From a virus (Duplodnaviria; Heunggongvirae; Uroviricota; Caudoviricetes): 18,288 nucleotides of DNA. The notes under the pieces are model-generated. The model saw only the letters and a list, made by a program, of their open reading frames with translations. It ran no database searches and was not told the DNA's origin. Shown here piece after piece: positions 6,632 through 16,441 of this stretch. The DNA is taken from IMG/VR virus record IMGVR_UViG_2703718771_000014; one strand, 5' to 3'. The stretch's first letter is position 1; each line of letters opens with the position of its first letter. The position numbers and the translations under genes were made by a program.

Positions 6632-6802
6632 TTAAAGTTCGTGTGCCATCTGGTCTTTTTCGGCACAGATTTCACTACAATATTTTTTCATTTCCGTCGT
6701 TGGTATAACTCCACGCATGAAATGAAGTGGTCTTGTAATGATTTTGCTTTCTTCAATTTCTTTATTGCAAAGGTGATAAGCACATTTTATTTTCTTAGTC
6801 AT
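6632..6802 (-). CDS. ydaE: YdaE, small Cys-rich metal-binding protein, 56 aa (below the track cut-off; translated by hand)
   Basis: Hand translation gives [56 protein letters not shown]. Its ATG overlaps the kilR stop by 1 nt (TAATG). It matches my recollection of K-12 YdaE. Confidence 0.75.
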   Translation of the reverse strand: MTKKIKCAYHLCNKEIEESKIITRPLHFMRGVIPTTEMKKYCSEICAEKDQMAHEL

Positions 6803-7023
6803 TACCATGACTCCGCCTTTACAGGTAAACCATCACGACCGAGGAAGACTCTAATCATGCAGTCAGAAATGCATGTTTTTGTAGTCAGGCTACGAATATA
6901 AAGTTTTCGCTTTTTAATATTGTTTGCCGAGGCGATATATGTCCGACCTTCATGAAGAACATAATCGCCAGGGGTCACACACTGACGTGGTATTTCATCA
7001 GTTCCGAAGTGATGAGCAATCAT
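6802..7023 (-). CDS. kilR: KilR, FtsZ-targeting cell-division inhibitor, 73 aa
   Basis: The ATG at 7023 gives [40 protein letters not shown]..., matching my recollection of K-12 KilR. The track ORF starts 4 codons upstream. Confidence 0.85.
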
Positions 7024-7592
7024 AATTATCTCCATTTTTACAAATGAATTTTGTCGATGCGGTGCCTGGTGCCTCCAGGTGACGTTAACCAGTTAACAAT
7101 TAACGCCGGATACAGAGAATCCACCCATAACACTGTTTTTGGTTTTAACTGTTCCGCGTGCGCTTAGCCGCATTCACCGCATCACAAAATTCACTTTAAA
7201 AAGGGCGGCAGAGCAGCCACGGAGTAAAACTGATACCGCCAAACGTCACCAGAAAATTGATAACAGAGGGCGTTGCAGCGGGGTTGTCACTTAAGCGTAT
7301 GGTCAACCTGACAACCCGGTGTCCTCAATGGGGAAGGAATAACCCCGCCATACTTACCGCCGCGCCATTTCGCGGAGTGCCACAACCGGAAGCGCACGTT
7401 CGAAGAAATCTAACGACAAGCCTTCTGAGGGAAAGAGCTTCGCCGTACGCTTTCGCGTTATGCCCTGACTTTTCAGGGAAATATCCTTTCAGTAAACTGT
7501 CAGTACCGGATTCTTATCCGTGTCCGGCGCACGACCACACGTGACAGCGTGTTGGTCTCCATTTTTAACCCAGAACCTCAATGGAGGATAAA

Positions 7593-7802
7593 ATGCCAAA
7601 CAAAAAAAGAAATCCGCTTATTGAAAAACAGATTGAATGCCTGGTAAATCAACTCAGGCAATCAGGGTTATTAAAAACTCATTCAGAGTTGAGGCTCACA
7701 GAATCAGCATTCGACGATAAATTAAATAATGTCCTTTATAATGGCATTATTGATTTTAATCGTTCTGTTGGTCGCCGCGGCCCTGCTGGTGTTTCCTTAT
7801 AA
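7593..7802 (+). CDS. Hypothetical 69-aa protein, convergent with the 212-aa gene
   Basis: The ATG at 7593 is preceded by GGAGGA at 5-nt spacing. The stop codon (7800..7802) abuts the stop of the minus-strand gene (7803..7805). The gene looks AT-rich by eye. No family recognised. Confidence 0.45.
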   Translation: MPNKKRNPLIEKQIECLVNQLRQSGLLKTHSELRLTESAFDDKLNNVLYNGIIDFNRSVGRRGPAGVSL

Positions 7803-8441
7803 TTACCAGTCAATCCAGAGTGGACCGTGTTCAGCGTAAATATAACTGTACACATCCAGATTATATTTGTGGTCTGTTAAGAACAGGCCGCAAATACATG
7901 CCGAAGCTTCCAGTGCAGCGGCTCTGTTACTGAATAACCATGTAGCAACATTCCAGCGTTTTTCTGCATCCCAGTCTTTCTCAAGGCCTGATACCATGAA
8001 GAAACCGTTAGTGTTGCCATCAAATAATTCTGTTTCCAAATTTTTAAGCAATGCCTGATGGACTCTTGCCAGGTATTCCGCCGGAATTTCGCCACGAATT
8101 CTGATGAGATTGTCATAAACAAACATGTTCCCCGCATATGGCGATTTTTCTTTCTTGTTTTTTAAACCAGCATCATGAGCAAACTGATCAATTTCTTCTT
8201 CCGTTGGTTTCGTATTGATGTTTTGCGCTGTCGTTTCTGCAATTTTATTTGCCACACTCTCTGAGTCGTGTTTATTTATAGACGCACAGAAATACAATCC
8301 GGTAAACGCATCGCGCACATTACGAGCCATATTATCAGTGTCTTTTTTCGTTACCGATTCCAATTCAAGTTCGTTCAGACGATGACGAAGTGTGTGTGCT
8401 GCAATCTCCTGGATTGAAGGAGGTAAATCTTTAAATTCCAT
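7803..8441 (-). CDS. Hypothetical 212-aa protein with no recognisable family; downstream gene of the repressor-adjacent module
   Basis: Track ORF 7803..8453. The ATG at 8441 (MEFKDLPPS...) is preceded by GAGG at about 8 nt. There is an 11-nt gap to the upstream small gene. I see no Walker A motif, no predicted transmembrane segment and no familiar nuclease motif. Confidence 0.7.
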   Translation of the reverse strand: MEFKDLPPSIQEIAAHTLRHRLNELELESVTKKDTDNMARNVRDAFTGLYFCASINKHDSESVANKIAETTAQNINTKPTEEEIDQFAHDAGLKNKKEKSPYAGNMFVYDNLIRIRGEIPAEYLARVHQALLKNLETELFDGNTNGFFMVSGLEKDWDAEKRWNVATWLFSNRAAALEASACICGLFLTDHKYNLDVYSYIYAEHGPLWIDW

Positions 8442-8452
8442 CGTCAACCTCA

Positions 8453-8605
8453 TTAGTCGGAGTTTCTTGCTAACCAGCGATGCGCGCCAGCTTCGGTTTT
8501 AAACGATTTGCTTTTGGTATACGTCATGGCGGTGAATGTGCCGTCCTGATTGGGAAACACGCCACATACCAGAGATTCGTTGTTGCCAAGATCGATAGTA
8601 TCCAT
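8453..8605 (-). CDS. Small 50-aa protein (possibly YdaG/YdaF-like), first gene of the module
   Basis: The track ORF starts at a TTG at 8668. The internal ATG at 8605 is preceded by GAGG at 7 nt and gives MDTIDLGNNESLVCGVFPNQDGTFTAMTYTKSKSFKTEAGAHRWLARNSD. Confidence 0.55.
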   Translation of the reverse strand: MDTIDLGNNESLVCGVFPNQDGTFTAMTYTKSKSFKTEAGAHRWLARNSD

Positions 8606-8785
8606 GTTGACCTCATTTCCCCTTAACGCCGGGTGGCGGAACGTTTTATCTACTGCGCTTTGTATCAATCAACAACTGCCGTCATGTTCGTATGCCTCAG
8701 GCTGGCTACTTAGCCCTGTTCAGTGGCTGGATAACTCGAGGTATTGTCCAGCCGTTCTCTGGTGGGGCGTTGTTTGGATATGCTT

Positions 8786-8814
8786 ATTAAACACAATGCG
8801 TTTTCTTATGTCAA
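8786..8814 (-). promoter_or_regulatory. Sigma70-type promoter for the module (TTGACA-17-TTTAAT on the minus strand), flanked by operator-like AACAC-N5-GTGTT sites
   Basis: Minus-strand read: cgtgTTGACAtaagaaaacgcattgtgTTTAATaagc. Operator-like site B (8813..8827) overlaps the -35 edge and site C (8790..8804, one mismatch) overlaps the -10. Confidence 0.55.
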
Positions 8815-8855
8815 CACGAAATGTGTTTTGTGGTGGGTGTCATATGATGATGGTA

Positions 8856-8880
8856 CAAAAAAGCCCGCTGATAGCGGGCT
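8856..8880 (-). terminator. Intrinsic terminator downstream of the repressor gene
   Basis: On the minus strand: AGCCCGC-TATCA-GCGGGCT followed by TTTTTTG, placed 30 nt after the repressor stop. Confidence 0.7.
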
Positions 8881-8910
8881 GATTGGCATATTACTGTGAT
8901 AGCAAGATCA

Positions 8911-9330
8911 TTACTCCGGTGGGGGATTATCTTTAAGCCTGCCTCTCAAATATTTTTCTACATACTCATCGATTTCTTTTAGCCGGACTTCAAATAGCTC
9001 AATCATTCGTTGTTGTTCTGAGCCAGGTAGCTGGTTAAACAACTCAAGAAGTTTTCGTTGGGATTCATTTAACCACAATTCAGAAGATTCCTGTTCTCCA
9101 AATAGGAGCTCAGGAGGAGATATGCCAAGTGCCTTTCCCAATACGACAGCGTCATGCACTCCAACATTTCTGCTGCCCGCCTCATAGTTACCTATACGCG
9201 ATTGCGTCCATCCGCAGATTTCAGCAAGTTTTCCTTGAGATAAACCAAGCTTCTGCCTGCGCTCTTTAAGACGCATTGCAATTTTGTCATTGAGCCTACT
9301 AGCGGCAATTTTTTCGTTTTCTTTTTCCAT
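8911..9330 (-). CDS. Prophage repressor, XRE-family HTH (CI/RacR analogue), 139 aa, no S24 peptidase domain
   Basis: Track ORF with an HTH segment (LGLSQGKLAEICGWTQSRIGNYEAG). It is divergent from the Cro-like gene across a 96-bp region carrying palindromes, followed by its own terminator. It is too short to carry a LexA-like autocleavage domain. Confidence 0.85.
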   Translation of the reverse strand: MEKENEKIAASRLNDKIAMRLKERRQKLGLSQGKLAEICGWTQSRIGNYEAGSRNVGVHDAVVLGKALGISPPELLFGEQESSELWLNESQRKLLELFNQLPGSEQQRMIELFEVRLKEIDEYVEKYLRGRLKDNPPPE

Positions 9331-13771: not shown

Positions 13772-14016
13772 ATTCATTACGATATGGGAATTCCCATATC
13801 GGGTAAAAACGGTTTGCGGTAAAGCGAGAGTTAAGTAGAATTGCTGCGGGTGCTTGAGGCTATCTGCCTCGGGCATGAACACCAACGGCAGATAGAGAAA
13901 AGCCCCAGTTAACATTACGCGTCCGGCAAGACGCTTAACATTAATCTGAGGCCATATCTATGCTCTACACACGTAGGTTAGCCTCTTACGTGCCGAAAGG
14001 CAAGGAGAAGCAGGCT

Positions 14017-14172
14017 ATGAAGCAGCAAAAGGCGATGCTAATCGCCCTGATCGTCATCTGTTTAACCGTCATTGTGACGGCACTGGTAACGAGGAAAGAC
14101 CTCTGCGAGGTACGAATCCGAACCGGCCAGACGGAGGTCGCTGTCTTCACAGCTTACGAACCTGAGGAGTAA
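14017..14172 (+). CDS. hokD: Hok/Gef-family type I toxin (HokD/RelF), 51 aa
   Basis: AGGAG lies 8 nt upstream of the ATG. The translation MKQQKAMLIALIVICLTVIVTALVTRKDLCEVRIRTGQTEVAVFTAYEPEE matches my recollection of K-12 HokD. The track ORF begins at an in-frame ATG at 13960. Confidence 0.9.
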   Translation: MKQQKAMLIALIVICLTVIVTALVTRKDLCEVRIRTGQTEVAVFTAYEPEE

Positions 14173-16171: not shown

Positions 16172-16197
16172 CTCAATCTGTTATCCGGGGCTATATT
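16168..16197 (+). promoter_or_regulatory. Late promoter candidate (PR'-like): TTGACT-18-TATATT
   Basis: TTGACT at 16168..16173 overlaps the Q-like stop codon. TATATT at 16192..16197. A hairpin (CGCCAG-caaaat-CTGGCG) lies just downstream. Confidence 0.6.
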
Positions 16198-16258
16198 CCT
16201 CACGCGCCAGCAAAATCTGGCGTCGGGATTGGAACCCCGGATAGAGACCGCGACAGAC

Positions 16259-16280
16259 ACACGCCGCGAGCGTGTTTTTT
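16259..16280 (+). terminator. Intrinsic terminator (tR'-like) about 70 nt downstream of the late promoter
   Basis: ACACGC-CGCGA-GCGTGT followed by TTTTTT. Confidence 0.7.
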
Positions 16281-16441
16281 ATTGTCGTATGCACGCGCAC
16301 ATCTGAATTATGGTGGGGCGCATGGGGGAGCTGAAAAGCTCGCCGGTCGGTTTCCCGGTAGTTCCAACCCTGTGCGTCTCACCACCCGATGATTGGAACC
16401 TGACGGTGGTGATAGTTTAGAAACCACCAGAGGGCGTCATT

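Follow-up and report, generated by a model that had tools for sequence, protein, structure and literature searches.

DicF is a prophage-encoded small RNA (sRNA) that inhibits cell division; in Escherichia coli K-12 it binds Hfq and represses ftsZ (PMC5069750, PMC9438474). Its 5′ end is made by RNase E, its 53-nt form by termination and the 3′ end of its 72-nt form by RNase III (PMC5069750, PMC9438474); the 53-nt form alone, carried on a plasmid, is active (PMC5069750). The K-12 copy belongs to the dicBF operon of the Qin prophage, and enterohaemorrhagic E. coli (EHEC)-type strains have several dicF copies in different prophages (PMC5069750, PMC7873438). Another sRNA, KilS (b4833), has been placed in the 5′ untranslated region (UTR) of kilR in the K-12 Rac prophage (PMC8175672). 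Here we analysed an 18,288-nt stretch of viral DNA (IMG/VR record IMGVR_UViG_2703718771_000014, Caudoviricetes; hereafter the window), in which a non-coding region at 7024-7592 lies between the kilR start codon (ATG at 7023) and the start of a plus-strand gene at 7593. This region holds a minus-strand dicF gene ahead of kilR, and we consider with good confidence that it forms an untranslated, dicF-bearing segment within a Rac-like prophage's leftward early operon, in the gene order racR - DUF1391 gene - 212-aa gene - dicF - kilR - ydaE - recE. DicF itself is already known and a DicF copy as such is ordinary; the possibly new part of the locus is a leader domain upstream of it, a structured RNA element that is supported by covariation and absent from Rfam 15.

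The dicF gene, its terminator and the linker that precedes it are laid out as follows.

7203-7255, minus strand: DicF sRNA gene, 53 nt (Rfam RF00039; the Rfam match covers 7254-7203)
7198-7240, minus strand: DicF intrinsic terminator, hairpin GGCGGUAUCAG...CUGCUCUGCCGCC at 7240-7204 followed by UUUUU at 7202-7198 (Rfam structure line)
7256-7271, minus strand: AU-rich single-stranded linker GCCCUCUGUUAUCAAU, ending at the DicF 5′ end (sequence)

The match to RF00039 reaches 75.0 bits (gathering score 48), covers model positions 1-52 of 52 (E = 2.9e-15) and is on the strand of kilR-recE. Compared with K-12 dicF, 52 of the 53 bases are identical; the single difference, at 7217 (nt 39, G for A), turns an inner-stem U-A pair into U-G. 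Both the 5′ and the 3′ target-pairing regions of K-12 DicF are conserved here; the one changed base still pairs in its stem. A terminator scan flagged a terminator-like site at 7220-7205. By comparison with K-12, the linker at 7271-7256 would be the expected RNase E processing site. A preliminary description of the region, made from the letters of the window, had suggested perhaps a small RNA or a structured leader, and this is borne out: a search of Rfam covariance models gave a full-length DicF match above the gathering threshold, and a conserved structured leader, which has no Rfam match, lies upstream of it. The main feature, the minus-strand DicF gene itself, had been missed.

The same description had called 7036-7580 a gene-poor region without a credible open reading frame (ORF). 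Its non-coding character holds and its bounds do not: the true ones are 7024 and 7592. On the kilR side, the ORF spans 6802-7035 (minus strand), and the real start is ATG 7023, which matches the start called by the Prokaryotic Genome Annotation Pipeline (PGAP) in a near-identical O145 locus. The longest ORF in the region (7257-7544, plus strand) has a TTG start and 95 codons' worth of product (95 aa), a 31-aa ORF at 7038-7133 matches only phrog_24763, of unknown function, and reading frames are broken by single-base indels between the window and the homologous Qin spacer. We therefore rejected a coding explanation on the grounds of short ORFs, non-ATG starts and frames broken relative to Qin. 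The region is indeed richer in GC than its flanks, as had been noticed (0.48-0.56 across 7100-7500 vs 0.34-0.43), and the minus-strand RNA 7580-7020 has a more stable fold than all 100 of 100 dinucleotide shuffles (z = -3.79). ARAGORN found no tRNA or tmRNA gene in the window, and a tRNA-like gene was thus rejected.

Most of this region comes from a Qin-type prophage. Positions 7533-7043 (minus strand) are 93.3% identical over 495 nt to the K-12 Qin ydfC-dicF-dicB spacer (L002 2103-2594). The homology ends about 20 nt before the kilR start codon, and the last ~20 nt match K-12 Rac kilR. Because Qin-like sequence switches to Rac kilR-like sequence at this point, the locus is, as judged from sequence comparison, a dicF-kilR chimera in which the Qin ydfC-dicF-dicB spacer has been recombined onto kilR. 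The Qin dicBF operon shares with it the terminator, the ~340-nt upstream spacer (93% identity) and the downstream UTR, and Qin dicF likewise occupies a lambdoid early-left operon position ahead of a cell-division inhibitor gene. Unlike in Qin, the downstream gene is kilR, of the Rac type, and not dicB, and ydfB and ydfC are absent upstream. The outermost part of the Qin-derived sequence can be described as follows.

7391-7533, minus strand: upstream part of the untranslated spacer, Qin-homologous downstream of ydfC, with predicted hairpins only (identity and fold)

The protein encoded by kilR matches phrog_294, Kil protein (E = 8.5e-36). At this locus DicF, an RNA inhibitor of ftsZ translation, would be coupled directly to a protein inhibitor of FtsZ on one transcript. 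Sequence matching the region was found in 4,723 of 5,426 complete E. coli genomes, at a median of two places per genome; the dicF-kilR junction, searched for with a split query requiring both parts side by side, was found in 109 of the 5,426. A scan of species-representative genomes with a DicF core pattern returned only 8 loci with little diversity. RefSeq leaves dicF unannotated at the near-identical O145/dicF-kilR loci. Phage Tritos annotates the same sequence as DicF (its order is CI - ydfABC-like - DicF - dicB - ydfD - exoVIII - xis - int), and phage Evi has DicF followed by Kil, the same arrangement as here; the same DicF sequence is thus carried by functional or induced phages.

The preliminary description had read the region as a lambda-like early control region that probably holds the leftward promoter for the kilR-recE operon, by analogy with lambda pL, its operators, nutL and N. 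As in lambda, the region is located left of the immunity repressor and upstream of kil and recombination genes, which is the correct side of kilR for an early promoter. Unlike in lambda, no promoter, operators, nut site or N gene was found in it. Neither a tool scan nor a permissive scan detected, inside 7036-7580, a leftward sigma-70-like site that reaches 8 of 12 consensus matches, and a promoter inside the region was rejected on these two scans. There is no N-like ORF and no conserved ORF in the region, and its only boxA-like sequence, GCTCTTT at 7431-7425, is not conserved in Qin, so that a nut site was likewise rejected. In both K-12 Qin and Tritos, the homologous sequence lies within an operon, flanked by ydfC and dicB. 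Moreover, the repressor gene racR lies at a distance of 1.3 kb, with a strong promoter-like site next to it.

8786-8814, minus strand: best leftward early promoter candidate, TTGACA-17-TTTAAT with a TG upstream of the -10 element (11/12 consensus matches)

This candidate lies ~1.2 kb upstream of the region, just after racR (8911-9330, minus strand) and its terminator. It is the only strong leftward site in 8600-8920 and is unique in the window, and the aligned position in K-12 Rac reads TTGACA-17-TATAGT. From these sequence features it is likely that 8814-8786 is the early-left promoter and that the region is internal to the operon, and we regard a lambda-like control region at 7036-7580 as very unlikely. 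Some points do weigh against the operon-internal reading. KilS, which occupies the same slot in K-12 Rac, possibly has its own transcription start site and may be transcribed from a promoter of its own (PMC8175672); an internal promoter may also lie beyond the reach of consensus scans; the plus-strand gene at 7593-7802 is antisense to the proposed long transcript; and every processing step that we assign to this locus is carried over, by analogy, from K-12 Qin.

Two further elements were seen around the candidate promoter. A terminator-like hairpin AGCCCGCTATCAGCGGGCT followed by TTTTTT is present at 8862-8880 (minus strand), 31 nt past the racR stop codon. Downstream of the promoter, a ~100-nt leader at 8670-8785 (minus strand) is conserved in K-12 Rac and Tritos (CCACCCACCCCGC...GTTAAGTAGCCAGCC...) and occupies the expected place of a nutL- or putL-type element.

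Between the upstream part of the spacer and the linker lies the leader domain, which we propose to consist of four helices and a pseudoknot.

7272-7386, minus strand: conserved leader domain, ~115 nt, four helices and a pseudoknot (covariance model R1)
7386-7379 with 7279-7272, minus strand: helix P0
7375-7371 with 7364-7360, minus strand: helix H1
7347-7343 with 7333-7329, minus strand: helix H2
7281-7317 (7317-7309 with 7289-7281), minus strand: helix H3, a 9-bp stem with the 19-nt loop GGUUGACCAUACGCUUAAG
7353-7348 (GUAUGG) with 7302-7297 (CCAUAC), minus strand: proposed pseudoknot

H3 is the hairpin already noticed in the preliminary description, and its arms, GGGTTGTCA at 7281-7289 and TGACAACCC at 7309-7317, are exactly where they had been reported. 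Taken alone, this stem is weak evidence: a perfect hairpin of at least 9 bp occurs in 6% of dinucleotide shuffles of the region. That the hairpin is real follows from covariation in relatives and not from the length of its stem alone. We built the covariance model R1 from 22 close relatives and gathered members by BLAST of phage records and by pattern scans of viral contigs, including very divergent ones. R1 matches the window once, at 7390-7262, with 154 bits, and finds 66 copies, of which eight are divergent (L143, L032, L140, L151, L159, L163, L160 and L165; E from 1e-13 to 1e-8). It gives no match in HK022, K-12 Rac, the Salmonella DicF locus or Shigella phage 75/02 Stx. Covariation in the domain is strong and extends over lambdoid and P1-like phages.

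In an alignment of 65 distinct sequences, paired cells make up 95.3%, whereas controls with slid partners give 33-57%. Of the 33 pairs, 21 have changed on both sides; shuffles yield 6.5 ± 2.0 such pairs, and 0 of 500 shuffles reach 21. By helix, both-side changes affect 8/8 pairs in P0, 9/9 in H3 and 3/5 in H2; H1 shows no covariation in this alignment. The H3 stem is replaced wholesale among members (for example GGCAAUU/AAUUGCC, CCGCUGG/CCAGCGG, GAGUUGCCA/UGGCAACAC and GGUUAUU/AAUAACC), and its loop, GGUUGACCAUACGCYURAG, is almost invariant. The pseudoknot partner of this loop is in the linker AAGUAUGG between H1 and H2. One pseudoknot pair is either A-U (61 sequences) or C-G (4 sequences) and is never half-changed; the linker change was not a selection criterion in the search that found the four C-G sequences. 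In a scan for loop variants, every true member with CCAGAC has a GUCUGG, GACUGG or AUCUGG linker. An alignment of the close relatives made with MAFFT only gave 93.4% paired cells and 7 pairs changed on both sides. It counts against this evidence that the covariation alignment follows the model to which it was fitted and that E. coli-type sequences make up most of it, with only about ten independent lineages. Taken together, we hold with high confidence that the leader domain is a real conserved structured RNA. Rfam gives no match at E ≤ 10 on the minus strand of 7262-7390, nor for the copies in P7, Ayreon, L032, L140 and L143, and a full-text literature search for the H3 loop sequence returned nothing relevant and found no description of the domain; we put the chance that it has not been described before at about even.

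Downstream of DicF, the kilR 5′ UTR is also structured.

7175-7202, minus strand: 5′ arm of a 28-bp long-range duplex, candidate RNase III site, directly after DicF (minimum-energy fold)
7065-7174, minus strand: structured kilR 5′ UTR inside the duplex, ~110 nt (hairpins 7107-7098/7090-7081 and 7079-7075/7069-7065)
7035-7064, minus strand: 3′ arm of the long-range duplex, ending 1 nt before the kilR Shine-Dalgarno sequence (minimum-energy fold)
7021-7033, minus strand: kilR ribosome-binding site, GGAG at 7033-7030 and ATG at 7023-7021 (sequence; PGAP start in O145)

In the minimum-energy fold, 7202-7175 pairs with 7064-7035 in blocks of 6, 13 and 9 bp separated by two bulges. Since the published 3′ end of the 72-nt DicF (53 + 19 nt; PMC5069750) maps to ~7184, inside the 5′ arm, the duplex may be read as an RNase III site. 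Its core is kept before three downstream genes, namely dicB, kilR and a third gene beginning MLNVAIEN. Four single mismatches aside (L029, L071, L100 and L131), all variation in the duplex is compatible with wobble pairing, and no double compensation was seen among the relatives compared. The model for STnc100 (RF02076) aligns over its whole length to 7201-7016 and includes the same hairpins; its 38.2 bits are below the gathering score of 47, so that this is a sub-threshold likeness and not a family assignment, and the P7 copy, at 43 bits, is below 47 as well. The same UTR element is found ahead of Qin dicB, K-12 Rac kilR and P7 tciA. Because the third gene type also follows it, we propose that the UTR is a shared front end for at least three genes.

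Several observations touch on this element. In P7 (L016 2001-2116), the STnc100-like element stands before tciA (terB) and tciB in the ban operon, and the dicB, kilR and P7 contexts all involve genes annotated as cell-division inhibitors. The third gene type, beginning MLNVAIENQNGW, takes the place of dicB or kilR after the UTR in the viral contigs L085, L103, L118 and L122. Two GTTAAC palindromes had been reported at 7061 and 7069; these coordinates were wrong by 23 nt, the sites being at 7084-7089 and 7092-7097. GTTAAC is not enriched in the window (6 seen vs 3.9 expected; 40 of 200 shuffles reach 6), and we rejected the pair as a meaningful palindrome for this lack of enrichment. The two sites form the opposite arms of a single kilR 5′ UTR hairpin, 7107-7098 with 7090-7081.

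The chimeric origin of the locus, visibly Qin-like to ~20 nt before kilR, raises the possibility that the whole region is a recombination scar, in which DicF alone is functional and the leader, the hairpin and the UTR are inherited Qin sequence with a decaying dicB fragment. The activity of plasmid-borne 53-nt DicF by itself (PMC5069750) fits this explanation, as does the PGAP annotation of the O145 locus, which calls a pseudogene, “DicB, missing C-terminus,” at 7050-7133 (minus strand). However, because the same sequence is UTR that also precedes intact dicB, the fragment call is probably an artefact of N-terminally over-extended DicB gene models. Both-side changes in 21 of the 33 leader pairs, across lambdoid phages, P1-like phages and unrelated contigs with dissimilar stems, and the retention of the UTR duplex before three different genes also speak against a scar, which we consider improbable.

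Based on these features, we propose a scheme for expression of the locus as an internal segment of the early operon. Transcription would most likely start at the racR-proximal promoter at 8814-8786 and run leftward via the DUF1391 gene and then the 212-aa gene into the spacer. Some polymerases would halt at the DicF hairpin, and RNase E would trim the 5′ end in the linker at 7271-7256; by analogy with K-12, the product would be the 53-nt Hfq-dependent DicF, repressing ftsZ and other host mRNAs. Polymerases that read through would make the kilR-ydaE-recE mRNA, and a cut of the long duplex by RNase III would give the 72-nt DicF and a kilR mRNA whose 5′ end adjoins the Shine-Dalgarno sequence. 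One transcript could in this way supply two FtsZ inhibitors, an RNA (DicF) and a protein (KilR). What we observed in this scheme is which elements are present (DicF, the leader domain and the UTR duplex) and how they are arranged; the remainder is taken from K-12 work or is what we infer.

The weakest step of the explanation is the role of the leader domain. Qin/Rac-like lambdoid phages share the domain with P1/P7, where it stands at the start of the ban operon, and with unrelated phage contigs. BLAST of phage records also found the ~120 nt upstream of DicF where DicF itself is missing, namely in P7 and in Ayreon, cdtI, 2H10 and Stx2c phages. In P7 and Ayreon, the domain follows shortly after early promoters and lies ahead of terminators; in P7, it begins ~45 nt past the C1 operator of the ban operon (Op(ban)). 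Here it is ~1 kb from the candidate promoter. Twelve distinct downstream sequences, or “payloads,” follow it, and in 10 of the 12 a stable hairpin and a U tract are found 50-90 nt after the H3 loop. The payloads include DicF, the Ayreon type, an RprA-like seed (L057) and a hairpin that matches Rfam abiF RNA (L140 1618-1757; 61.3 bits vs 37). In P7, L160 and L165, the domain precedes tRNA genes.

For a possible function, the domain may be compared with the put element of HK022, a structured early-operon RNA that follows an early promoter and comes before intrinsic terminators (PMC9378689); neither the phages with HK022 put nor those with the leader domain have an evident N-like gene. By this analogy, the leader domain might be a cis element that acts on the elongating polymerase and sets termination at DicF against read-through. 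We favour this role, though only tentatively, and it is equally doubtful whether the domain represents an undescribed phage RNA family that acts in cis in a put-like manner while being structurally unrelated to put. Unlike HK022 put, which has two stem-loops in ~70 nt, the leader domain has four helices and a pseudoknot in ~115 nt and is often far from the promoter. We rejected homology to put: R1 is negative in the HK022 loci (L017 and L018), and there is no sequence similarity, local alignment scores being 36-40 against shuffle maxima of 41-53.

This lack of similarity is also a point against a put-like role, and several others join it. In L032 and L151, the domain is directly before a ribosome-binding site, without a terminator; in L140, the terminator is followed by convergent ORFs; and in K-12 Rac KilS and Shigella phage 75/02 Stx, an sRNA-like terminator occurs without the domain. 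Folds of ten payload types revealed no conserved alternative (antiterminator) pairing. We also rejected a riboswitch-style switch between domain and terminator, for the minimum-energy folds of the ten payload types mostly keep the two separate; for the same reason, the domain-terminator pairing seen in the whole-region fold is not general.

The independent folding of domain and terminator in most payload types would suit a different role, in which the leader is a maturation or stability scaffold that offers the AU-rich linker to RNase E, so releasing payload sRNAs that are interchangeable, or acts in trans within a longer non-coding RNA. Twelve payloads behind one domain, among them DicF, the RprA-like seed of L057 and the abiF-RNA hairpin of L140, are consistent with such a scaffold; the L140 unit resembles a stand-alone convergent RNA gene, and the tRNA genes that the domain precedes in P7, L160 and L165 also need processing. 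However, L032 and L151 have neither payload nor terminator, the KilS and 75/02 Stx sRNAs exist without the domain, and the cleavage of domain-linked RNAs is a prediction. We see the scaffold as a possible role of modest probability, about as likely as a termination/read-through element or close behind it.

If a termination/read-through role is true, the leader domain decides between stopping, to give DicF or another payload sRNA, and reading through into kilR-recET-xis-int, and it supplies the missing antitermination device of N-less lambdoid prophages. Should it control either of the two, termination or processing, it would account for the way in which DicF yield is set against that of the toxic downstream genes, and it would offer a testable handle on early-operon read-through in such prophages. 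The occurrence of interchangeable sRNAs between leader and UTR (DicF, RprA-like KilS, the abiF-RNA hairpin and others) suggests a cassette system for phage payload sRNAs. Of additional note, L140 is a GC-rich viral contig with no AbiF-sized ORF downstream and with convergent adjoining ORFs; its unit may be a phage-borne mimic of an antitoxin RNA.

KilS deserves a separate comparison. It occupies the same slot as the DicF locus, between the plus-strand gene and kilR, with the same downstream UTR and duplex, and it shares the DicF terminator scaffold GGCGG.AUCAG...CCGCCCUUUUU. Unlike DicF, it has a different 5′ part with an RprA-like AUUGCUGUGUGUAGU, and the Rfam DicF model gives it a sub-threshold 39.1 bits. 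K-12 Rac also differs from the present locus in having no R1 match, the leader domain not being found there. With its terminator scaffold and downstream UTR in common, KilS (L003 5406-5503) resembles a DicF paralogue; the paper that describes it makes no mention of DicF (PMC8175672). Its AUUGCUGUGUGUAGU is identical to the conserved RprA core, and the Rfam RprA model aligns there at 28 bits. In the viral contig L057, a KilS/RprA-like seed is located behind the leader domain.

Other features of the window lie outside this region. The neighbouring 69-aa gene (7593-7802, plus strand; phrog_4274) is antisense within the leftward operon and is at the position of sieB in K-12 Rac; it is adjoined by the 212-aa gene (7803-8441, minus strand; phrog_2151), and neither has a Pfam match. 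Gathering-level Rfam matches, all on the plus strand, were obtained for RalA antitoxin RNA at 1557-1735 (215 bits), sok RNA at 13848-14022 (112 bits), c4-a1b1 at 16191-16243 (50 bits), isrK at 16204-16280 (77.5 bits) and C4 antisense RNA at 16306-16389 (71 bits). The last three together form a P1/P7 immI-like antirepressor control module inside the prophage.

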